From Pyrobaculum sp. (GTDB taxonomy: Archaea; Thermoproteota; Thermoprotei; Thermoproteales; Thermoproteaceae): a stretch of 64,000 bases of DNA. Numbering within the stretch: position 1 is the first letter of the stretch; each line of letters starts with the position of its first letter. The position numbers were made by a program, and so were the translations under genes. The notes below the pieces were generated by a model. The model did no database searches and was not told the origin of the DNA. It saw only the letters and a program-made list of their open reading frames with translations. Of this stretch, positions 28,697 through 52,345 are shown piece by piece. Location of the stretch: assembly GCA_046293555.1 (NCBI GenBank), contig JBKBOT010000004.1, forward strand, positions 5,485 to 69,484, in the 5' to 3' direction.

Positions 28697-29252
28697 AGTG
28701 GAAGTTATTTAAGACACATTTATAACTAACCACCTTCCTCACCTCTCCGCTAGGCTTCGGGGGGCTGTAGACATCGCCACCAATGGCTTTAACCCGCCAG
28801 GGGCTTGACGCCTCGCCTCTCTTGTACCTCTCCAGGTTTTGGGGTGCCACAGCCAATATCCCGGTGCCCATAGCGGTGAACTCCGTAGTGACCAAAAGGC
28901 TGGCCTCCCGCGCCTCTATCCATCTGCCCTCCACTCTATCTATCACACAGACTTGTAACACCTCCCCGCCCGAGTTCTCTACTTCTCTATGCCATGTGGC
29001 TAGACAGCCCACGTCGTCAAAAAAATACCACCGCTCTACTCCCCTCAACCTGACTTTCATCGCCGCGGCTGAGGGGGGGTAATCTACCACCATCTTGCAG
29101 ACTGGACACTCCTCCCGGCCGAAGACAAGCGGCGGCTCCTCCCCACAGTAAAGACCCCCCTCCCCGCCCCTCAGGCGGGACAATACGCCAAATAACGCCG
29201 CCGTCCCCACGAGGCCTAGGAGGAGGGCGAAAAAAGTGCGGCGGGTTGGCAT
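28650..29252 (-). CDS. nosL: NosL-like Cu chaperone with Tat-like signal
   Basis: RRTFF signal, CPVCKM, FFDDVGCL, TAMGTG. Confidence 0.8.
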   Translation of the reverse strand: MPTRRTFFALLLGLVGTAALFGVLSRLRGGEGGLYCGEEPPLVFGREECPVCKMVVDYPPSAAAMKVRLRGVERWYFFDDVGCLATWHREVENSGGEVLQVCVIDRVEGRWIEAREASLLVTTEFTAMGTGILAVAPQNLERYKRGEASSPWRVKAIGGDVYSPPKPSGEVRKVVSYKCVLNNFHYGPAWSSPPGWYNSC

Positions 29253-29941
29253 TAGTGGGTGTGCGTCGCCGCGCCTCTACACCAGTTGGGTCTAGGCATC
29301 CCGGTCTTCTGCATCACCTCTCTATATAGCTGAAGCATTTGGTCAAAAGTGTAGATAGTGGCGTTGTGTTTCTTGGCGTCGTCGGGGTTAGAGAAGGCAA
29401 ACACACAATCGCCCATGGGGGTCTTCCTGTCTTGTAAGATCACGTAATACGCCCTCTTGGCGTCTACATATAGCTCGACGCCACGTCTGTGAGCTTCATA
29501 ATCTGGCACCAACACCTGCTTGACCCCACCCAATACGTTCTTTATGTCATCCACAGTGGCGTTTAGCCTGGCGAGAAAACGCCATTTCTCTATAGGTATT
29601 AACTGCATCCTGAATATACAGCCGATGTCGTCAGTTCTGGCAGCTACCCCCTTGTCGAATATAACTCGCGCCGAGACTCCCATCTTTACAGCCTCAGCCA
29701 CATCCATGCCGCAGAATATACAACGGCGTTCAAAAGTGCCGTTTTTGACAAGTTGTTCCAACAGTGGAACAGGCTTGGCGACAGTTTGAGTCACCGTAGC
29801 GGTCTCGGTTGTTGTCACTGTTTGAGTCACCGTAGTGGCGACAGTTTGAGTCACCACCTTCGCCGGGGCTGTCGCTGTGCCAGCCAGATAGGCGGCGACC
29901 CCCACCACAATCGCCACCAGAAGTGGAACTACTATTTTCAT
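29252..29941 (-). CDS. nosL: NosL-like Cu chaperone with Thr-rich stalk
   Basis: CIFCGM, DDIGC, TPMG; N-terminal TM plus VTQTV repeats. Confidence 0.75.
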   Translation of the reverse strand: MKIVVPLLVAIVVGVAAYLAGTATAPAKVVTQTVATTVTQTVTTTETATVTQTVAKPVPLLEQLVKNGTFERRCIFCGMDVAEAVKMGVSARVIFDKGVAARTDDIGCIFRMQLIPIEKWRFLARLNATVDDIKNVLGGVKQVLVPDYEAHRRGVELYVDAKRAYYVILQDRKTPMGDCVFAFSNPDDAKKHNATIYTFDQMLQLYREVMQKTGMPRPNWCRGAATHTH

Positions 29942-30230
29942 AAAGGCCCATGTAATATTTTTGTTTAAACCTTATGGAACAACATGTGGGGAGTCTCCCG
30001 CGGGGGTGTTCTAGAGCGTTAGGCGTTGAGGTAGATATGGCCACATTAAGACATAGGCAAGGGAAAAATATGTAAAATATGCTGGACGACGCCGGCGGCC
30101 CTGAGGAGTCTCACAGGCTTTGTATATTAAAACGGCGCCGCTGCGATATTCCTTCAGAAGGAGGCCCCCTACAAGCTTATAACAGATAGGCGCTGGGGGA
30201 GGCCTAGAATTCTAAAAAGCCTAACGGACA

Positions 30231-30704
30231 CTACTTAACTTTAGACATGGCCACGCCTAACAAAACAAAGGCGTAGGCGAGTAGGAATACCCCAGCCTTT
30301 AGGTAAAACAAGGCTGCCCCAGCCACGTAGACCATCCCGGCGGCCTTAAAGAGGCCTACCCCCGTGGCCTTATATGCCCTTTCCATTAATATATAAAACG
30401 GCACTGTTGTGACTATCCAGGCGGCGGCCACGTGGGCTAGGTAGGGAGAGTTGGTGAGAAAGGCGGTGATAATAGTTAGCCTCAACGCCGCGGCTGTGGT
30501 CAGAGAGGCTGTAAGAGCTGTGGCAAACCAAAACAAGCCCATGGTGTAGATCTGCCTGTTGTTATAGTAATACGCCATCCATCTAGAGGCCAGTAGTAGA
30601 AAGATGTGGGCCACCACGGCCACTGGCAGTAATATCCCCTCAATTATAAAAGAGAGGGCGCCAACAACGCCGAAGACCTTGATAGGGCCGGGGTCTAGAG
30701 ACAT
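30231..30704 (-). CDS. Hypothetical membrane protein
   Basis: Hydrophobic ORF downstream of the aa3 operon. Confidence 0.55.
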   Translation of the reverse strand: MSLDPGPIKVFGVVGALSFIIEGILLPVAVVAHIFLLLASRWMAYYYNNRQIYTMGLFWFATALTASLTTAAALRLTIITAFLTNSPYLAHVAAAWIVTTVPFYILMERAYKATGVGLFKAAGMVYVAGAALFYLKAGVFLLAYAFVLLGVAMSKVK

Positions 30705-30709
30705 AACAG

Positions 30710-30895
30710 CTAAGACCTGGACTCATGTAGCCACCGCTCGTACCACCGCTCAAAATAATAATAAGCCAGCGCCATCATTCCAAGAACTAGAAATGAGGAG
30801 AAGAGCGGCGGGTCGAAGTGTATAAACGCCACAGCTACGGCGGCGGTCAGTAGAACTACGGCGACTGTTAGAGAAAACCACTTGAGAATCCTCAT
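30710..30895 (-). CDS. Small 2-TM protein, possible oxidase subunit IV-like
   Basis: ATG 30895 overlaps the upstream stop (ATGA); 61 aa, two TMs. Confidence 0.55.
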   Translation of the reverse strand: MRILKWFSLTVAVVLLTAAVAVAFIHFDPPLFSSFLVLGMMALAYYYFERWYERWLHESRS

Positions 30896-33487
30896 GCCGC
30901 CGTGGGCACAGGCCTTATGGCATGTATGGCGCCGAGGTAAAAGGTGACGAACAACACCACCCACACTCCGTCTACAAAATGCCAGTAGTACTCGGCGGCC
31001 TCCACGCCCTGAGGCCTCTTCTGGCTCCAGTAGCCCAACGCCACCAACACCGCCACTAGAGACCAGAAGACTAGACCAATTATCACGTGAAAGCCGTGAA
31101 GTGTGACTATGGCGTAGAAGTAGTTAGCCACTATGGAGGACGCCGGCGTAAAGCCTTCTTTTTGTAACGCCGGATACTCCACTAAAAACTGGCTGCCTGC
31201 AAAAAAGGCCCCCAGGGCCGTGGTTACAGCAAGCCATAGATAGAACTGACGCAAGTTGCCTCTCTGGAGGCTTCTCCTGGCGGCCATGGCCGTGAAGCTA
31301 CTTCCCCACAAGGCAAAAGTCATGGCTAGAGACAGGGGGCCTATTAAAGAGGGTAGATGCGTCAAGGCGGCGTTCCAGTTGTCAAATAGCACCACCCTGG
31401 CGTAATATGCCGAAGATATCAACGTGCCGAAGAGGGCTACCTCAGACAGGATTATCCACACCATAGACAGCCTCAAGTCCCCCCAGAGGGTGGGCGGCTT
31501 TGGCATCTCCACATGTGCCCCATTTAACATGCGGAGAGCCTTGGCGTGTTTTACCTGGTCTGCGAGAAACCACGCGACGCCAAGTGACATAAACACGGCT
31601 ATAGCCACAAGCCCAAATTGTGGCGCGGAGAGAAATGGATAGTTTTGAAGTATGGGGGAGACGCCTTTGAGCAGCGAGAGGACGCCGAGCCCCAACGGGA
31701 TCAAGCCGGTGGCTAAGATAAATGGCCACGGGTTTGGCGAGTGGTGTGGCTTCACCAACGGCGGTATTACGTCCGGAAGGCCATATCTAGCAGAGCCCCA
31801 GGGGTCTTCCCTATTTTTAACCGCAGGCCCGTTGAGCAGGCTATAGAGGAGGTTTATGAAATACAACACAACACCCGTGGTGAGGATAATTGTGAAGATA
31901 GACATGGCGGCGTGGTATGGATAGAGGTCTGGGGTGGGGGCTGCCGAGTATCTCCTAGGCGACCCCAAAACGCCGGCGGCAGACATTAGCGTATATGTGA
32001 CAAAACCCCCTATGGTTATCAGACCCCAGCTAAACACAGCAAGCCTCTCGTTATACCATCTGCCAGTTAAGTGAGGGAAGTAGTACAGCAAGGCGCCGAA
32101 GATAGAGAAGGCGATGGCGTTGACGATGTAGTGGAAGTGTCCAATCACAAAGTAGGTGTCTTGTAGGGTTAAGCGTAACTACTGGGAAAAACACGCCGGT
32201 GACGCCGCCTACGATAAAAAAGAGGAGAAAGGTAAACATAAACAACATGGGGGCTCTTAGCAATATCCTGCCGCCGTATAGGGTGGCGGTCCAGTTAAAG
32301 ACCTTTACGCCAGAGGGGATGGCCACAGCCATGGTGGCAATAGCCATGGCTAGCCTAGGGGCGTAGTCCTGCACTGCGGTAAACATGTGGTGCATCCAGA
32401 CGGCGAAGCTTATGGAGGCTATAGCCACAGACGACACGGCAATAGCTGTGTAGCCATAGGCCCTCCTCCTGGCCATCCTCTGTATAACCTCTGAGACAAG
32501 CCCCATGGCTGGCAACACCAGGATGTAGACCTCCGGATGGCCAAAGAACCAGAAGATGTGTTGAAACAGCCGCGGGTCTCCCGACGCCGCCGGGTTGTTA
32601 GGCACCACCGTGAAGAAGTGAAGGCCCAGGTGTCTCTCTACTAACAACATGATCGCCCCGGCCGCCAGGGGGGGCAGCGCCACAACCATGAGAAGAGACG
32701 TGGCGAGGATAGACCAGGCAAAGAGAGACATATCTAACATCTTTATGTCAGGTCTCCTCAGCCTAGTTATGGTGAGGAGGAAGTTTATCCCAGTTAAGGT
32801 AGAGGACATGCCGGAGATTATTACCGCCAACAGTATGAGATCTACGCCGATAGACCTGCTAAATGTGCTAAGCGGGGGGTATAACGTCCAGCCTATAGAG
32901 TCGCCGTGTTGCCAAAAGAGGAGGCTACTCCACATGAAGGCCGTTGCGGGGACCTGCATCCAGAGGGAGAGGGCGTTTACCCGAGGCCAGTAGAGGTCAG
33001 GCGCCCCGATTAGCTTAGGCACAAGAATGTTTGCCACCCCCGTCACGGCCTGCATGGCAAATAGTAATAACATGCCAAGGCCGTGAAGAGACATAAACCA
33101 TGTATATAACAAGTCGTCGAAGGGTGGCGAGACGCCAGGGGTAGCCACGGCGGTGGTAGGAGGGCTATTGGCGATAGCAAGCCGCATGTAAATAGCGACA
33201 AAGCCCGCCAAGGCGAAGTTTACTATAGAAAAGAGTATGTACATTATGCCTATCTTGTGGGCATCGGTAGTGGTTAGGTAGTCGCCCAATATCTCTGACA
33301 CGGGCTTCCCCCCCTTTCTCTGTTCACTATTTGCGGGTTCATTAGGGGCCACCACGGAAGCAGAGCCATACGGCTCCACCCCCGCCTCAGATGGCGCCGG
33401 TCCCATGGAGGCGGGGCGAGATTTTCCAAAAGCCTTTCTAACGAAACTACCCAAAATGTATGGTAGGTAGAACTTTTGGCTCTTCAT
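30892..33487 (-). pseudogene. aa3-type heme-copper oxidase fused subunit I+III, frameshifted near 32165-32177
   Basis: Frame 1: TTDAHKIG, SLHG, WFFGHPEVY, WMHHMF, GGVTGV. Frame 2 resumes LQDTYFVIGHFHY and continues into subunit III (SEVALF, LHGFHV, YWHFVD). Confidence 0.85.
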
Positions 33488-34154
33488 GTGGCCACCACCT
33501 GGCCTAACATTAGGTAGTGTTTTGCTCCACAAAACTCTGCACAGAATATGTGATATACGCCGGGTTTCTCCACTTGTAGCCACATGGTGTACCACCGGCC
33601 GGGCACTGCGTCGTATTTATACCCCAGCTCTCTGATGTAGAAGGAGTGTACTACATCTCTAGACGTGGCCTCTAGCCTATACAACTTACCCGCCTTTATG
33701 TATAGGGTATTTACCGTAGTTGTGCCGTTTGGATATTCAAATATCCAACTATATCTAACTGCATATACCTTGATAGCCTCGTATTCCCCGGCGCCGAAAG
33801 CCCTGCCGGCGGCTGCCCTCCCGTAGTTTGATAAAGACCCACGGCGGTTATATAGGCTAGGTACCCCAATATAGCCGCCGCGCCTAATATGGTGGCGTAT
33901 TCAAGAGCTTTCCCCCTCTCCATGGCCTCTCTCTCTGAACCTGTACATGAAGAAAACTATGGCGCCCAGAAATAAGGCCACCACAACGCCGGCCGATATC
34001 GCCACGATTGTATACGCCTCAACTTGCGATATTGGAGATGCGGGGTCAAAGGGGGGCTTTCCGAAGTTTACTATATAAAGCCACGTGGCCAGTATGGCAT
34101 GGCCAGTATGGCGACAACCACCCCCATATAGACCCCGAGGTCTTTCAAAGTCAT
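33484..34154 (-). pseudogene. aa3-type oxidase subunit II (CuA), three frameshifts
   Basis: Fragments MTLKDLGVY / ATWLYIVNFG..YRFRERGHGE / KALEYATILG..SAPG / EYEAIKVYAVRYSW..DVVHSF..CAEFCGAKHYLM. Breaks at a 14-bp duplication (34086-34112), near a C5 run (33912-33916) and at a C4 run (33786-33789). Confidence 0.88.
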
Positions 34155-34214
34155 GTAAAAAAGTAGAGAATTCTATTTAAAAATCTTATTCTATCTAAAA
34201 TTGGAGTAAATTCT

Positions 34215-34230
34215 GTATCTATGTAGATAC
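34215..34230. promoter_or_regulatory. Palindrome GTATCTA-TG-TAGATAC just upstream of the ctaA-like BRE/TATA
   Basis: Perfect 7-bp arms, 6 nt before TTATATA (34237). Confidence 0.55.
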
Positions 34231-34262
34231 CAAGGCTTATATACCACGAAATAAGTAGGGCC

Positions 34263-35111
34263 ATGCGCCTTCCTGTCGCGGTGAGGAGCGCCTTTATTTC
34301 TGTGCTCTTGGTCAGCTTTACAGGCGGCTTAACTGCGGGGCTTGGCCATGGTTTTGACTTAGGCACCGCGTGGCCTGGCGAGCCGCTGGTAGTTTTGCTT
34401 ACGCTTATACAGGGGAGCCTAGAGCCAGTCCACAGGCTTTTAACCATAGCTGCCGGCGTCTTGTATGTAGTAGTCTTTGCGCTCGCCCTGAGGACTGGGG
34501 CTAGGCCTCTCGTCTATCTGGCCGCTACGGCTCTGGCGTTTCTAATAGCCACAGCCCTCACCGGCAGGGTGGTGTTGTTAGTTCTCGGCGGCGAGGTGCC
34601 GGCGCCGTGGTCTTACGCCGTATACCCCCTAAACAACGCCTTAGCTCTCGCCGCAGCCATGTCTATGGCCCTGTTGGCCTCTATGTTTACACCTCCTGTT
34701 TCCACAAGGGGGGGTTATCTCTTCAGGGGGGCTGCCTTCTGGGGCGCCGTGGCTTCTATCTCTGGCGCATATATCCTCGGCTACCACAAGATAACGCGGA
34801 CGCCACTTCAATACGGCCTAATCCCCACCTTTGACGACCTGCCGTGGTTAATACACCTACTTTCTGCAACGGTTGCGGTAGCTCTAGCTGCGGCAGGTCT
34901 GGCTATAAACAAGAGGGGGGTTTGGCATTGGCTTCTTCTAGCGTCGCTTTTGGCACAGCCGGCTACAGGCCTGTTGATGTATCTAGGGGCTTCCACAGAC
35001 CCGTGGGCCCCTGGCCCCCAGGCGGGTCTCCACGCCGCATTTGCCCACCTGTTTGTTATCTCCGCCTTTGTTATCTATGTGAGGGGTAGACAATGGACAT
35101 CCCGTACCTAG
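34263..35111 (+). CDS. ctaA: Heme A synthase-like (CtaA/COX15) protein
   Basis: 8 TMs, G..G.AWP, EPVHRLL, LIHLL, GLHAAFA; oxidase context. Lacks the usual Cys pair. Confidence 0.65.
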   Translation: MRLPVAVRSAFISVLLVSFTGGLTAGLGHGFDLGTAWPGEPLVVLLTLIQGSLEPVHRLLTIAAGVLYVVVFALALRTGARPLVYLAATALAFLIATALTGRVVLLVLGGEVPAPWSYAVYPLNNALALAAAMSMALLASMFTPPVSTRGGYLFRGAAFWGAVASISGAYILGYHKITRTPLQYGLIPTFDDLPWLIHLLSATVAVALAAAGLAINKRGVWHWLLLASLLAQPATGLLMYLGASTDPWAPGPQAGLHAAFAHLFVISAFVIYVRGRQWTSRT

Positions 35112-37231
35112 CCCTCCTCATAGCGGCCATAGCTCTCAACGCCGCGGCGGCATTTTACAGAAGGCTGGGCCCTCTGGCTTTTGTATCAGTTGGAGCCCTA
35201 GTGGCGTATCACTACGCCCTTTTTCTTCTCGGAGATTTTAGACTCGTCTTGGTGTATATAAACGCGGCTGTGGGCCAGACGGCGTTAGAGAGGGCTACAG
35301 CCGCCATAGCCTCCATCCCGGGCGCCGTATATCTAATGGCGTTGCCCACAGCCGCCGTGTTTAAAAGAGGCGGCCACCTGGCGGCCGCCTTGTTGTTAAC
35401 ATACGCCGCCCTCGAGAGGCCCTTCTTGACTATAGACGACGTCCTCCCTGGATATATCCCCCAGTCTGGAATGGGGCTAAACCCCCTCCTCCGAAGCGTA
35501 TGGGCAGTGCCACATCCCGTGGCGGTGTTGGTGGGCTACGGCCTTATCGTCGCGGCGGCGGCGTCAAGCTCTGAGAGGCTTCTCAAATGGGGCTGGGCCT
35601 CTGTCTCCCTCGGCTTACTTCTCGGCGCCATATGGAGCTACCAGACTTTCGGCTGGGCTGGCTACTGGGCGTGGGACCCCGTGGAAAACGCCCTGCTGGC
35701 CGTCTGGCTTGTGACGACTGCCGCGTTGCACCTCAAAAACCGCGGCGGGATGGTGGCGGCCGTGGGGGTCGTGCTAGGCGCCGTGGGACTAAACCAAGGC
35801 GGTTTTTCCGCCCTCCATAGCTTCGTCGGGGGGACCCCCACGCCGCAGGTAATGCTGGCGGCGTCTTTAGCCCTGTTGACATACGGCATCTATAAGTCCA
35901 CAGAGGGGGTAAAAGATGGCATGTTGGCAATGGCGGCGTTTGGCATGATGGCAGTAGGTGTGGTTATATACATAACGGCGGCGGTTCCAGCTCTCTACTC
36001 TATAGCCACCTCTACGGCTGTACAGCCCCCAGCTGGCGACGTCTTTGTGGCAAGCTTTCTCTACCCCCTGGCGGCCTCTGTGTTGTCGGGGCTCTTCCTG
36101 GCGGCTGTATATCACGGCGTTGGGGTGAAGAGGGGGGTTGTGATTTTTGCCGCCATATTAGCCCTCTCGGCAGTTCTCTCCTGGGTTTTTAAGCCGGCCT
36201 TCGAGAGCCCCATTGCCACAAACTTTTTTGTATATGCCATAGCCGCCGCGGCTCTAGCTGCGGCATACCAGACGGCTAGAAGTAACTACGGGAGGTGGCA
36301 TAAGGCTCTTCACGTTGTTGCCTTCCTGCTGGTGGCCCTACTGGCCGCCAGCGGGCCTTTTTCATACAGCCAGAGTTACTACAAGCTGCTGGCAGTAGAT
36401 AGAGTCGGCGCGGTTTACTTCACCCTACTGGATTGGCCCTACCCACAACAGGTCTCCCTAGTCGACATAGCCGTCACGCAAGATGGGAGAGTTGTGGAGG
36501 TTCCCCCAACGGCGCAGGTGGAGCCCCCGCCTAACTATACGGCATTTGTCAAAAGGGTTGACGGCAAGTTTAGCCTAGGCGGGCTGAACTACAGCGTCGT
36601 GGAGCTAGGGGGGATCCCATATGTGGTAGTATGGGGAGGCGGGCAGGAGCTGGGCCGGGTCGGCGGCGTGCCGGTAGTAGAGGTGGAGAGAAACGGCACC
36701 GTGGTGGTCTTCCCCGCACCGCTGGACTTAATAAAGGCGCTGGAGACAAGCCCCAGGTGGGCGAAAAGGTTCTTAGAGTGTTTTAACTCCAGCCGCCTGG
36801 CCCCCGGCGGCGTGGAGGTCAGGGGGGTTCTGTCGATAGACGGCGTGGAGGCGCCCTTCGTGGTGAGGTACGACATATCCGGCTGGCTTAAGGGCGTTGG
36901 GGCTTTAACCGCCGGCGTGGTGGACATCTATAAGCCCGTGGTGGGCTACCACGCGGTGGCGATACCCCCAACTACCCTAGAGGGCGTCGCGTGGGATTAC
37001 GCCACACGTCAATACGCCGCCTTGTTGTTACAACAATGCAACGCCCCCATGGCATATGCCGTGTTAAAAACAACAGGCGTCAAAAACCTCACCTCCGCCG
37101 TGACCTATCTTGAAGCCACACAAGACATCTGGGTGGTGGGATTCAAGCCCGTACCCCTAATTTTAGAGCTGTGGGTATTTTCCGCAATACTTATAATTGT
37201 CGCGATATATAAGTACAAAGACAAAGTTTAA
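35093..37231 (+). CDS. ccmF: Cytochrome c heme lyase CcmF
   Basis: PHP..L.GY, GAIWSYQTFGWAGYWAWDPVENA, LHSF. Confidence 0.9.
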   Translation: MDIPYLALLIAAIALNAAAAFYRRLGPLAFVSVGALVAYHYALFLLGDFRLVLVYINAAVGQTALERATAAIASIPGAVYLMALPTAAVFKRGGHLAAALLLTYAALERPFLTIDDVLPGYIPQSGMGLNPLLRSVWAVPHPVAVLVGYGLIVAAAASSSERLLKWGWASVSLGLLLGAIWSYQTFGWAGYWAWDPVENALLAVWLVTTAALHLKNRGGMVAAVGVVLGAVGLNQGGFSALHSFVGGTPTPQVMLAASLALLTYGIYKSTEGVKDGMLAMAAFGMMAVGVVIYITAAVPALYSIATSTAVQPPAGDVFVASFLYPLAASVLSGLFLAAVYHGVGVKRGVVIFAAILALSAVLSWVFKPAFESPIATNFFVYAIAAAALAAAYQTARSNYGRWHKALHVVAFLLVALLAASGPFSYSQSYYKLLAVDRVGAVYFTLLDWPYPQQVSLVDIAVTQDGRVVEVPPTAQVEPPPNYTAFVKRVDGKFSLGGLNYSVVELGGIPYVVVWGGGQELGRVGGVPVVEVERNGTVVVFPAPLDLIKALETSPRWAKRFLECFNSSRLAPGGVEVRGVLSIDGVEAPFVVRYDISGWLKGVGALTAGVVDIYKPVVGYHAVAIPPTTLEGVAWDYATRQYAALLLQQCNAPMAYAVLKTTGVKNLTSAVTYLEATQDIWVVGFKPVPLILELWVFSAILIIVAIYKYKDKV

Positions 37232-40465: not shown

Positions 40466-40942
40466 ATGACGATACACAGAGAAGAGAAGATCTGGGCCGC
40501 CGTGGTAGCGGCGATGGTCGCCATATTTCTGGCGGCGCTTGCCTACGCCGCGTGGGTAATCGGCCTCCAGGTCCCCGGCGGGGAGGTAGAGTTAGTCAAC
40601 CCCAAGACTGTCCTACAGGAGTTTAAGCCTGGCGTGAGGGAGGTGGCGCCGGGGAGATATGAGGTGACTCTAGTGGGGCGGATGTTTTCGTGGTTTCCCT
40701 CAGAGATCACGCTAAAGGACCCCGTAGAGGTGAAGTTCAGGCTTACCTCTCTCGACGTGATACACGGCTTTCAGATTGTCGGCACTAATGTAAACGTCAT
40801 GGTGTTTCCAGGCTATGTGGCAGAAATCACGTGGAGAGTGCCGCCAAATGCAGAGGGGAAATACCTAGTGGTATGTAACGAGTACTGTGGCATCGGCCAT
40901 CAGAACATGTACGGCGTCGTGAATATAGTTCGTAGTAAATAA
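40466..40942 (+). CDS. cbaB: ba3-type oxidase subunit II (CuA)
   Basis: EEKIW, DVIHGF, CNEYCGIGHQNM. Confidence 0.93.
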   Translation: MTIHREEKIWAAVVAAMVAIFLAALAYAAWVIGLQVPGGEVELVNPKTVLQEFKPGVREVAPGRYEVTLVGRMFSWFPSEITLKDPVEVKFRLTSLDVIHGFQIVGTNVNVMVFPGYVAEITWRVPPNAEGKYLVVCNEYCGIGHQNMYGVVNIVRSK

Positions 40943-40989
40943 GTGTAAAGAATAGAAAAGTTTATAAATTGAACTTCTTTTTTTATTAC

Positions 40990-42651
40990 ATGTTAAGTCA
41001 AAAATTTGTGGTTGAAGATAAGGTGGCCAAGATTGCGTTGGTGTTTAGCTTTGTGCTCCTGTTGTTAGGGGGGCTTTTTGGCTTTCTACAGGTGATTTCT
41101 AGAGCTCCCGGCATGCCTGCGTTACAGACTGCAGATATTTACTATATGGGCTTGACTCTTCACGGAGTTGCTCTGGCGGTGTTATGGACTGCCTTTTTTA
41201 TCGTGGGGCTTGCCGTGTTTGTACTGACGAGAGAACTGGGGCTAAACATGAACGCGCCGCTTCTACTAGGCGGCGCCGTCTTGGCTATCTTAGGTAGCTT
41301 GATGGGCGCCGTGGCTATACTTTCTGGCCAGGCCTCAGTTCTATATACCTTCTACCCGCCGCTGCAAGCCACGCCGCTGTTTTTCATAGGCCTTGCGGTA
41401 GTTTTAATCGGCACGTGGCTAATTGGCGCCGCTGTGATTGAAGTTTTTCTGAGGTGGCGGCGGCTGAATCCAGGCAAGGAGGTGCCCCTAGGTACCTACG
41501 GGGTGCTTACAACCATTGTGATCTGGCTTTTAGCCACGCCGCCTTTGGCCTATGCCGTAATTTTCTTCTCTATCCCCATGTCGTTGATGAATGCGCCGGT
41601 AGATGTGCTATGGTGGCGCCTCTGGTTCTGGTTTTTCGGCCACCCCCTGGTTTACTTCTGGCTTGTGCCCGCCATCACGGTCTGGTACGTAGTTTTGCCT
41701 AAAGTGTTGGGAACTGAGGTGTTTAGCAAGACTATGGCTAAGGTCGCCTTTATGTTGTATATCATCGCCTCGGTGCCGGTGGGGCTACACCACCAGTTTG
41801 TAGACCCCGGCGTCCACCCGGTCTATAAGTATCTACACACCGTGTTGACATATCTAGTGGCTGTGCCGTCTTTCCTCACGGCGCTAAACGTGTTGGCTAC
41901 TTTAGAGAGGGCAGGCCGCATGAGGGGTGGGAAGGGGCTCTTTGGCTGGATTGCCAAACTGCCTTGGGGGAAAGACCCGGTCTTTACGGGCATAACTTTT
42001 GCCATCATCCTCTTCGGCATTGCGGGGTTTTCGGGCGTTGTCAACGCCTCCTTTAATGTGAACTACATGGTGCACAACACCGCGTGGGTGGTGGGACATT
42101 TCCACCTCACGGTAGGTGGAGGAATCACGTTGACCTTTATAGCCACCTCGTTCCTACTAGTCCCCCTGTTGTTTGGCAGAGATTACGTCGGCAAGAAGTT
42201 ATTAATCGCGGTGCCAGCCCTGTGGTTTGTAGGCCAGCTGATTTTCGGCTTTGCCTACCACCTTGCGGGCATTTATGGCGCCCCCAGAAGGACGTTTCTA
42301 GCTGAAGCCGGCTACTTCCACCAGACGGACCTCCTGCAGTCGTTACATTTTGTCCCTCAGTGGGTTCCACTACTTCAAATTGGGGCTGTGGGCGGGGTTA
42401 TTTTCGCCATAGGCGGCGCCTTGTTCATACTGCTAACTTTCGCCACTATAGCTAGAGGCCCTAGGGTACAGCTAAGCGGCGGCGAGGCGTCGCCGGAGCT
42501 AGGGCCAGCTGGCTTTTTAGACAGGCTGGGGCTGTTAGTGCTAATCGCCATAGTGATAATTGTGATTGCCTACGCGCTGCCTGTTGTAGAGATATACAGC
42601 AGGGGCTTTTCGCCGGCGCCGCCGTATTGGCCCACGGGGGCGGCAAGTTAA
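40990..42651 (+). CDS. cbaA: ba3-type (family B) oxidase subunit I
   Basis: LTLHG, WFFGHPLVY, GLHHQFVDP, VVGHFHLTV; intact frame. Confidence 0.93.
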   Translation: MLSQKFVVEDKVAKIALVFSFVLLLLGGLFGFLQVISRAPGMPALQTADIYYMGLTLHGVALAVLWTAFFIVGLAVFVLTRELGLNMNAPLLLGGAVLAILGSLMGAVAILSGQASVLYTFYPPLQATPLFFIGLAVVLIGTWLIGAAVIEVFLRWRRLNPGKEVPLGTYGVLTTIVIWLLATPPLAYAVIFFSIPMSLMNAPVDVLWWRLWFWFFGHPLVYFWLVPAITVWYVVLPKVLGTEVFSKTMAKVAFMLYIIASVPVGLHHQFVDPGVHPVYKYLHTVLTYLVAVPSFLTALNVLATLERAGRMRGGKGLFGWIAKLPWGKDPVFTGITFAIILFGIAGFSGVVNASFNVNYMVHNTAWVVGHFHLTVGGGITLTFIATSFLLVPLLFGRDYVGKKLLIAVPALWFVGQLIFGFAYHLAGIYGAPRRTFLAEAGYFHQTDLLQSLHFVPQWVPLLQIGAVGGVIFAIGGALFILLTFATIARGPRVQLSGGEASPELGPAGFLDRLGLLVLIAIVIIVIAYALPVVEIYSRGFSPAPPYWPTGAAS

Positions 42652-50170: not shown

Positions 50171-52345
50171 ATGAAAAACGGCTGGACCTACTTAGTGCTG
50201 GCAGCCACGGTGTTTGTCTATGTGGTATATATCGCCATGGCCGTCTGGACGTTTTTCAACATGCCGCCAATTCCAGAGAGGGTGGAGACCGCCGGCGGCA
50301 AGCTGCTTTTCACCGGGCGGGATGTCGTAGAGGGTAAAATACTGGCGCAGAAATATGGCCTTCTTGACTACGGCTCTTTTCTCGGCTTCGGCGGCTATTT
50401 CGGCATTGACTACACTGCATACACCATGAAGATCTACGTAGAGAAGGTGGCCAAAATGCGGGGAGTGGAGTTCACGCCAGAGGCGGCTACTCAAGTCAGG
50501 CGGCTGCTTACGCCGAGGTTTGAGGTCAAGGCTGCCTTTTTTGGGTCTCAGAGCGGGAGGGTTGTAGTAAGCGAAGAGTTCGGCACGGCGTTTGAAGAAG
50601 TGGTGAAGTTCTACAAGGAGTACTTTGGGCCCAAGGCCGAGTCTGTTGGCCTAAAGCCCAACCTAATTACCGACGAGAGTCATGTCAGAAAAATTGCGGC
50701 GTTTTTCACATGGGGGGTGTTGATCTCCATGGCTAATTACACCAACGGCTTTCCCTACATGCCGGGGATACTGGAGCCTACAGTACACGTCACGGTCTCC
50801 ACCTGGGTCACCTTCTTCGTACTTCTACTCGTCATAATGCCCGTCGCCGGCTATATAATCATCAAGTTTCTTGACTACTGGAAGGAGCCGAGGATTTCGC
50901 TACAGCTCCCACCGCCCACGTCAACACAGAGGCTGGCGTTACTGGGCTTCGTGCTGGCGGTCCTGGGGCTGTCAATACAGGGGCTGCTGGGGGGCTACCT
51001 AATGCATAAATACACAGAGCCTTCTGACCTCTATGGAGTGTCTGGCGTAAACTCCATACTGCCCTTCAACGTGGCTAGAGCCCTTCACTACAACCTAGCC
51101 ATCTTGTGGATCGCCGTGTCTTGGGTCTCTTTCGCCCTCTTTGTGTTGCCATATCTAGGCGTCCAGCTAAACAGGGCGAAGGTGTTAGCCATATTAGGCG
51201 CCGGCGCCTTTACGGCTTTTGGCATCCTTCTCGGCATCTGGGCTTCATACCTCCAGCTCATCCCAGAGCCGTGGTGGTTTATAGTGGGGTCCCAGGGGAG
51301 GCCTGTGGTTAATCAAGGCACCTTGTGGCTTCTGCTGGTGGCAGCCCTCTTGGGCTACCTCTCCCTCGCCGTGTGGAGGGCGTCGAGGACATCCCCAGAG
51401 CCCATACAGCCGCTAGTCAAGATTCTGGCCATAGCTCTCGCCGGCACTGCCTTCGGGGCTGTGATGGGGGCATTGCCTGTAGTGTCGCCGTGGGGCCACT
51501 TCACGATAGATGAGTACTTCCGGTGGGTTTTAATACACGCCTTTGTGGAGGGCTTCTGGCCGGCCATCGTGATACCCATATTACTCATACTGTTGGTAAT
51601 TGCCGGCATGGTGCCGCCCAAGATGGCGGTAGCTGCTGCAGGTATTGACGCCACGTTGGAAATAGCTACAGGCATGATTGGCACGGCCCACCACTACTAT
51701 TGGGGGGGACAGCCCACCCTCTGGATGTATGTCGGCGCGGTGACGTCCACATTAGAGGTAATCCCCATAGGTTTCCTCATAGCCTACGCCCTGGTGTTAT
51801 GGCGCCGCGGCGAGTATAAGACAGAGCTCCAGAAGACTTTGCTGACCTTCGTCCTCGTGGCGGCCTTCGGCGGCGCAGTCGGCGTAGTGGCCTTTGGCGC
51901 AGGTATGATAAACATGCCTGTAGTTAACTACTATCTACACGGCTCGCAGGGAACTATGACACACGCCCATCTTGCGATGCCGCTTGCCTACGGCGTCCCC
52001 ACAATGTTGATGTGGGTAGTAGCCTTCACTCTGGCCGGGGCATTTGGCGATGTCCAGTTAAGGCGTCTTCGCTTAGCTGTAGTAATAATGGCCGTCGGGT
52101 TCTACTTACAAGTGCTGCTTTCGCTAGGCCTCTTAATGACAGCCCAATTTGTGGTCACGACAACAGAGGGGTACTGGGCTTCTAAGGCCTTGTTTGCCCC
52201 AGACGGGACGCCGGCGTTTTGGCAGAGGCCAGACGTAAAGACTTTTGTCTGGCTTAGAATGATAGGCGACGTAATTGCCGCGGCGGGTATAGCCGTCTTT
52301 TTGGTATATATGTTGAGGGGACTTCCTAAAGCATTAAGGCCATAA
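50171..52345 (+). CDS. norZ: Quinol-dependent nitric oxide reductase (qNor)
   Basis: GSFLG.G.YFG.DYTA, LIHAFVEG, GTAHHYYW, HAHLAM. Confidence 0.93.
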   Translation: MKNGWTYLVLAATVFVYVVYIAMAVWTFFNMPPIPERVETAGGKLLFTGRDVVEGKILAQKYGLLDYGSFLGFGGYFGIDYTAYTMKIYVEKVAKMRGVEFTPEAATQVRRLLTPRFEVKAAFFGSQSGRVVVSEEFGTAFEEVVKFYKEYFGPKAESVGLKPNLITDESHVRKIAAFFTWGVLISMANYTNGFPYMPGILEPTVHVTVSTWVTFFVLLLVIMPVAGYIIIKFLDYWKEPRISLQLPPPTSTQRLALLGFVLAVLGLSIQGLLGGYLMHKYTEPSDLYGVSGVNSILPFNVARALHYNLAILWIAVSWVSFALFVLPYLGVQLNRAKVLAILGAGAFTAFGILLGIWASYLQLIPEPWWFIVGSQGRPVVNQGTLWLLLVAALLGYLSLAVWRASRTSPEPIQPLVKILAIALAGTAFGAVMGALPVVSPWGHFTIDEYFRWVLIHAFVEGFWPAIVIPILLILLVIAGMVPPKMAVAAAGIDATLEIATGMIGTAHHYYWGGQPTLWMYVGAVTSTLEVIPIGFLIAYALVLWRRGEYKTELQKTLLTFVLVAAFGGAVGVVAFGAGMINMPVVNYYLHGSQGTMTHAHLAMPLAYGVPTMLMWVVAFTLAGAFGDVQLRRLRLAVVIMAVGFYLQVLLSLGLLMTAQFVVTTTEGYWASKALFAPDGTPAFWQRPDVKTFVWLRMIGDVIAAAGIAVFLVYMLRGLPKALRP

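Follow-up and report, generated by a model that had tools for sequence, protein, structure and literature searches.

Probable recent inactivation of an A-type cytochrome oxidase operon, beside an intact B-type oxidase, in a Pyrobaculum draft genome

The stretch of Pyrobaculum DNA considered here (hereafter the window; 64,000 nt, contig C4:5485-69484 of draft genome G000) carries an operon for a low-affinity, A-type terminal oxidase together with genes for a B-type oxidase, and it raises the question of whether the A-type operon can still give rise to an enzyme. The genome, from an uncultured lineage, is a 1.75 Mb assembly of 145 contigs (N50 42.7 kb), possibly a metagenome-assembled genome (MAG). 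Judged from its sequence, the operon belongs to the A1-family SoxM-like cytochrome oxidases of the Thermoproteaceae and is here a pseudogene of that family. DNA alignment with five intact orthologous operons (G003, G012, G002, G017, and G008) places three frame-breaking lesions in it, one in each of the first three genes; an earlier note on this DNA had counted four, and was right that the operon is truly broken in frame but not in the number. The locus is very probably a young pseudogene cluster, in which the low-affinity A-type oxidase has been inactivated by three independent small indels (insertions or deletions) while the B-type oxidase is whole.

Three lesions in three adjacent genes

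The operon occupies 34154 to 30710 of the minus strand, in the order open reading frame a (ORF-a), CuA subunit II (ORF-b), a subunit I+III fusion, and an ORF of 61 amino acids (aa). Its genes and lesions are as follows.

33901..34154, minus strand: ORF-a, a small two-helix membrane protein (positions 2-42 of the profile TIGR02866, CoxB, match residues 35-75)
33484..33923, minus strand: ORF-b, subunit II proper (MERGK..., one transmembrane (TM) helix plus the CuA cupredoxin domain; Pfam COX2, TIGR02866, and alignment)
30892..33487, minus strand: SoxM-like fused subunit I+III (CoxAC; COX1 and COX3 domains)
30710..30895, minus strand: 61-aa two-helix ORF, intact and kept in relatives; its ATG overlaps the I+III stop (ATGA)
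34084..34111, minus strand: lesion 1, 14-nt tandem duplication (CCATACTGGCCATG / CCATACTGGCCACG), single copy in the five relatives
33829..33831, minus strand: lesion 2, net 7-nt deletion in subunit II (alignment; same in a second assembly, L043)
32166..32170, minus strand: lesion 3, 5-nt deletion in helix X of I+III, just upstream of the GHFHY heme ligands (alignment; same in L043)

The duplication of lesion 1, already recognized in the earlier note, consists of two copies (34111-34098 and 34097-34084) that are identical at 13 of 14 positions and includes an exact 13-nt repeat (34086-98 and 34100-112) with a period of 14. When the sequence is read with one copy removed, it yields the peptide VAILATWLYIVNFGKPPF, the same as in the relatives. 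In the window, the frame opened by the ORF-a start codon reaches a stop after 27 codons, and the remainder of the gene lies in another frame that extends to a TGA at 33903-33901.

At lesion 2, 9 nt (GLY-EID-NYG in the relatives) are replaced by 2 nt: the relatives have GGx-CTx-TAC-GAA-ATx-GAC-AAC-TAC (GLYEIDNY), and the window has ...TAT-CA-AACTAC. Subunit II is thereby cut into a 70-aa piece and a cupredoxin piece without a start codon. A frame shift in this part of the gene had been proposed at a G4 run (33786-89); the shift is real, but there is no alignment gap at that run, and the lesion lies ~40 nt upstream, at 33829-33831. The 7-nt deletion returns the cupredoxin domain to the frame of ORF-a, with the TGA and a misread second TM helix (TM2) still in between.

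Lesion 3 had been foreseen as a break at 32165-77 that 5 additional nt would repair, and a 5-nt deletion is indeed found there: the window reads ...PVVTL(DLH)LQDTYFVIGHFHY, and the relatives read L-D-L-H-L-Q-D-T-Y-F. In relatives, I+III is a single open frame of 800-875 aa, to which the window copy has 73-80% amino-acid identity; the window pieces, of 478 aa (COX1 positions 1-338) and 418 aa (the end of COX1 plus COX3), are contiguous with those frames. The remaining indels peculiar to the window (-6, +177, +15, and -3 nt) all have lengths divisible by three.

The mutations had been ascribed to slippage, which suits only one of them. For the breaks in subunit II and I+III, where the alignment gaps measure 7 and 5 nt and lie away from runs, homopolymer slippage can be dismissed; among the three lesions, the tandem duplication alone is slippage-like. 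In thermophilic Crenarchaeota, small duplications and deletions are said to account for a large share of spontaneous mutations, as Grogan, Carver and Drake reportedly found for Sulfolobus in 2001.

The metal ligands are all retained, as the earlier note had held. Profile matches were obtained for the cupredoxin piece (PF00116, COX2, 8.1e-15) and the I+III pieces (PF00115, 5.9e-94 and 7.7e-15; PF00510, 2.5e-17). The CuA motif H...CxExCx3Hx2M is intact in subunit II, where VVHSFY...CAEFCGAKHYLM is read from the translation, and the translated I+III contains SLHG, GHPEVY, HHMF, GHFHY, APDLYWPR, and GVKVFNW. By established knowledge of A1 oxidases, these motifs supply ligands and channel residues, and the six heme a/heme a3/CuB histidines, the cross-linked Tyr, the GHPEVY Glu (A1 type), and the D- and K-channel residues are all kept. 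As far as the reading frames tell, however, no functional A-type enzyme would form, because translation of ORF-a would end after 27 codons, the cupredoxin domain lacks both its anchor helix and a start, and helix X, which bears two heme histidines, is severed from helices I-IX.

A natural split of subunit II

The remaining frame change in subunit II, which had been listed as a lesion in the form of a +1 shift, is of another kind.

33912..33916, minus strand: G5 run in the overlap of the ORF-a stop and the ORF-b ATG (GGCCATGGAGAGGGGGAAAG), nucleotide-identical in G003; not a lesion

The change of frame is real, but it is the overlap of two genes that is kept in 9/9 other operon-bearing genomes; comparison with orthologous operons, which had been recommended as a check, finds the relatives intact at the three lesion sites, whereas they share the change of frame seen at the G5 run. 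The operon-bearing relatives include genomes that we take to be those of the aerobic species P. aerophilum, P. oguniense, and P. calidifontis; G002 is treated here as P. oguniense, and G005, discussed below, presumably represents P. arsenaticum.

A six-frame search across 62 genomes of the order, with the split examined in the Thermoproteaceae, located nine further operon-bearing genomes, which belong to three genera; in each, subunit II was matched twice, by query 1-79 in one frame and by 77-225 in another. The ORF-b ATG and the frame change are kept in eight genomes by site comparison and in all nine by the search (window 33901-33923; L045-L053). In relatives, ORF-a ends in ...GHGEG (give or take a few residues, followed by the stop), ORF-b starts with MERGK... 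in the +1 frame, and the two overlap by 14-26 nt in different frames. In 10/10 operon-bearing Thermoproteaceae genomes, the two N-terminal TM helices and CuA do not lie in a single polypeptide: the first helix belongs to ORF-a, and the second, with CuA, to ORF-b. Unsplit homologues of 226 aa do occur in metagenomes (P0005 and P0006; 52% and 49% identity, 93-98% coverage). In the TIGR02866 alignment, the second helix of ORF-a is the counterpart of the first TM helix (TM1) of canonical subunit II, and an artificial ORF-a/ORF-b fusion scores 133 bits in one stretch, compared with 113 bits for ORF-b alone (positions 68-191). The family-wide location of TM1 and TM2 in different frames, the unsplit homologues, and the score of the fusion together indicate that an ancestral frameshift in the TM1-TM2 loop has been fixed as a gene split across the Thermoproteaceae, oxygen-respiring species included. 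A split subunit II is normal in this family, and the upstream ORF-a deserves annotation as part of the oxidase. In the annotation of P. aerophilum, the name subunit II is given to the 149-aa ORF-b only. In a genome of a second genus (G018; L012/L051, G018:C79:1537-3418), the split subunit II genes are located on the strand opposite to I+III, in divergent orientation, instead of upstream within the operon.

A comparable arrangement is known for ba3 oxidases, in which subunit IIa (CbaD) accompanies a one-helix subunit II (Thermus, Aquifex; PMC3128077). In both systems, the subunit II anchor comes from two polypeptides, and the small helix protein is encoded just upstream of the one-helix CuA subunit. 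The Thermoproteaceae enzyme differs in belonging to the A family, in having a two-helix small protein whose second helix aligns with canonical TM1, and in the overlap of its ORFs in different frames, which has the look of a fixed ancestral frameshift. That the overlap (..CAT-GGA-GAG-GGG.. / ATG-GAG-AGG-GG..) is, beyond a gene split, a programmed +1 recoding site across the Thermoproteaceae is a highly improbable proposal. If it were true, ribosomes would yield the two polypeptides plus a full-length three-helix subunit II, and in the window that system would have its first natural knock-out background.

Age and reality of the lesions

In the ancestral frames, six pieces with a total length of 3081 nt contain no stop codon. 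Such codons would be made by 3.5% of possible substitutions, and neutral divergence since inactivation is bounded at ~2.8% (95% upper limit) if substitution is uniform. Within the common taxon set, the otherwise invariant sites of I+III number 454 and carry 30 changes private to the window copy (6.6%), compared with 5.4% in the SoxB-type (B-type) subunit I. Functional relatives show ratios of 0.3-5.1, a range that takes in the value of 1.2 obtained here, and the changes in I+III are conservative. The two copies of lesion 1 differ at one site, which fits a short time since the duplication. The stop-free ancestral frames, and a rate of protein divergence that does not exceed that of the intact B-type oxidase, indicate that the inactivation is recent, at under about 3% neutral divergence, in line with the earlier proposal of recent loss.

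The locus is also present in a second assembly (Logan contig 1608, run SRR31360860; L043), whose 7437-nt match to window 29051-36487 is free of gaps and has one substitution, at 31504. All three indels are therefore reproduced in the Logan assembly. The truncated 478-aa subunit I was located on this contig by exact-product look-up; look-ups of the same kind with the 418-aa fragment and a neighbouring 282-aa membrane protein gave no match. Gene calls on the contig (70, 478, 381, and 61 aa) bear out the expectation that automated annotation would deliver fragments. The substitution at 31504 falls inside the pseudogene and exchanges ATG and ATA (Met/Ile).

Since one single-nucleotide polymorphism (SNP) separates the assemblies, at least two haplotypes share all three lesions. 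This SNP, and the fact that minor variants are dropped from assembled contigs, leave some room for a population polymorphism, in which intact alleles would coexist in the hot-spring population and the lineage would still have the enzyme. Such a situation is compatible with a young pseudogene cluster, yet it is unlikely: all three lesions are present in both assemblies, and three lesions on one haplotype imply that this haplotype has persisted without selection for the enzyme. For the I+III lesion, exact-pattern scans allowing 0-12 nt detected no other allele in genome or metagenome contigs, collections that may leave out close records.

The background rate of broken genes in this genome bears on a second alternative, namely that the cells have whole genes and that assembly or polishing introduced the indels. 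Nineteen 20-kb samples of G012 (380 kb) supplied stop-to-stop ORFs of >=150 aa, which were compared by tblastn with the whole of genome G000; orthologue-grade matches were obtained for 218, six of which matched in two frames. These six comprise two oxidase genes, one genuine frameshift, and three cases dismissed on inspection by eye as query artefacts, in which the stop-to-stop ORF ran into neighbouring or antisense sequence. The frameshift background is therefore 1 of ~216 other sampled orthologues (~0.5% of genes), as against three hits in three adjacent genes here. The genuine case is a ~7-nt deletion at ~15907-15931 of contig C32 of G000, in a gene for a 702-aa thioredoxin-domain (DUF255-like) protein, whose downstream half has diverged further (identity to G012 of 49%, as against 66%).

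Indels of 5, 7, and 14 nt off homopolymers are not usual errors of any sequencing platform. An artefact would be conceivable in a fragmented draft genome, possibly a MAG, but it is very improbable in view of this untypical form of the indels, their identity in the output of a second assembler, and their concentration in three adjacent genes against the background rate. The second assembly, the gene background, and the indel type are indirect tests, and all point to real mutations.

It is scarcely credible that the operon is still functional, with fragments that assemble as split subunits or with ribosomal or transcriptional recoding that bypasses the breaks: the natural split of subunit II suggests that split oxidase subunits can work, and all ligands are intact, but the new breaks occur in no relative, interrupt helix X of subunit I, leave the CuA domain with no anchor or start, end ORF-a after 27 codons, and would require three separate recoding events at non-slippery sites.

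Two points weigh against inactivation of the operon by three recent mutations. The lesions are read from assemblies, and run SRR31360860 may share reads with the present assembly; and the 95% bound on age depends on the uniform substitution assumed above.

Retained respiration and parallel losses

The claim that the ba3 oxidase is intact proved correct, as both of its subunits are open and colinear with those of relatives.

40466..42651, plus strand: B-type (ba3/SoxB-like) oxidase, intact; open frames, colinear with relatives
40466-40942, plus strand: B-type subunit II, 158 aa, a single frame in the alignment of relatives
40969-42651, plus strand: B-type subunit I, a 560-570-aa open frame (559-576 aa in relatives)

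Subunit I has 82% identity to those of G003 and G001. For subunit II, most of six relatives give a single-frame alignment that covers residues 1-158, and the rest one that begins at residue 3 or ends at 153-157; the match in G014 amounts to 38 aa near the end of a 1.7-kb stretch and carries no information on decay. The heme type (b/a3) implied by the designation ba3/SoxB-like is putative. Genes for cytochrome c, a Rieske protein, cytochrome b, and a SCO1 protein are likewise open in the window, as are the denitrification genes for NosZ, a quinol NO reductase (50171-52345), and NarG. The B-type oxidase, the bc complex, and the denitrification genes are intact while the aa3/SoxM operon is inactivated.

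A likely course of events is that selection on the low-affinity A-type oxidase was relaxed in a low-oxygen niche, that three independent small indels then broke ORF-a, subunit II, and I+III, one each, and that the B-type oxidase and the full denitrification set would now carry respiration. The shift to micro-oxic or denitrifying life that the earlier note envisaged is plausible, and it fits the state of G001, in which the operon is deleted but the B-type oxidase is kept.

In a tree of SoxB subunit I, G000 is the sister of G001 (support 100/98). G001 is without the A-type oxidase: the 4.5 kb that hold the operon in the window are absent from it, and at the syntenic site a NosL-like gene adjoins the gene for the 282-aa membrane protein. 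The losses in G000 and G001 must be independent, because the window copy is barely eroded and yet SoxB subunit I differs by ~18% between the two genomes.

Another loss is visible in G005, which retains only a 5'-truncated I+III; ORF-a, subunit II, and the start of I+III are gone. This relic (L009, G005:C1:519247-523344, ~1514), whose homology to P. oguniense begins ~10 codons into I+III, is 96.4% identical to G002, and its 2.6 kb (I+III plus the small downstream ORF) are open with no internal damage, features that mark it as a recent deletion relic. This agrees with a published comparison in which the obligate anaerobe P. arsenaticum, unlike P. oguniense, lacks the aerobic terminal cytochrome cluster (PMC3558965). 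The two cases agree in that an oxygen-respiring oxidase has been lost within the genus, and recently. They differ in that P. arsenaticum underwent a large deletion with an edge within roughly the first dozen codons of I+III, whereas the window has three small indels and keeps the B-type oxidase.

The CoxAC A1-family oxidase of aerobic Pyrobaculum, with PoxB as subunit II, is the sister of Sulfolobus SoxM (PMC3512248). With the aa3-type oxidase of P. oguniense, P. aerophilum, and P. calidifontis, the window operon shares gene order, split subunit II, ligands, and the divergent 282-aa neighbour; it is set apart by its three frame-breaking indels and by 177 nt inserted in frame at the 5' end of I+III. 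The decay in the window is ordinary gene loss, and it is already on record that aerobic oxidase clusters have been lost in Pyrobaculum. Together, the indels of G000, the deletion of G001, and the large deletion of P. arsenaticum amount to repeated independent loss of the A-type oxidase in this genus, with the B-type enzyme and denitrification retained in the G000 lineage and its sister. The window offers an early-stage snapshot of respiratory streamlining in a hyperthermophilic archaeon, and in the annotation of MAGs this genome should not be scored as having a working aa3 oxidase.

Two neighbouring features remain to be described. The 282-aa protein is a polytopic membrane protein (window 34263-35111, plus strand) encoded divergently from the operon, at the same position in relatives, and kept in the operon-less G001. 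It has no match in Pfam or NCBIfam. The Pfam family COX15/CtaA (PF02628) has no match in the genome, with a profile that likewise missed the Sulfolobus control. The protein may be an assembly factor or, alternatively, a divergent form of heme A synthase. The second feature is the insertion.

33300..33476, minus strand: window-specific 177-nt insertion between the subunit II stop and the conserved I+III start (alignment)

It is in frame, stop-free, and present in a single copy in the genome; a repeat or mobile element is ruled out by the lack of a second copy. The insertion may constitute either a 59-aa hydrophilic extension of I+III or a spacer.

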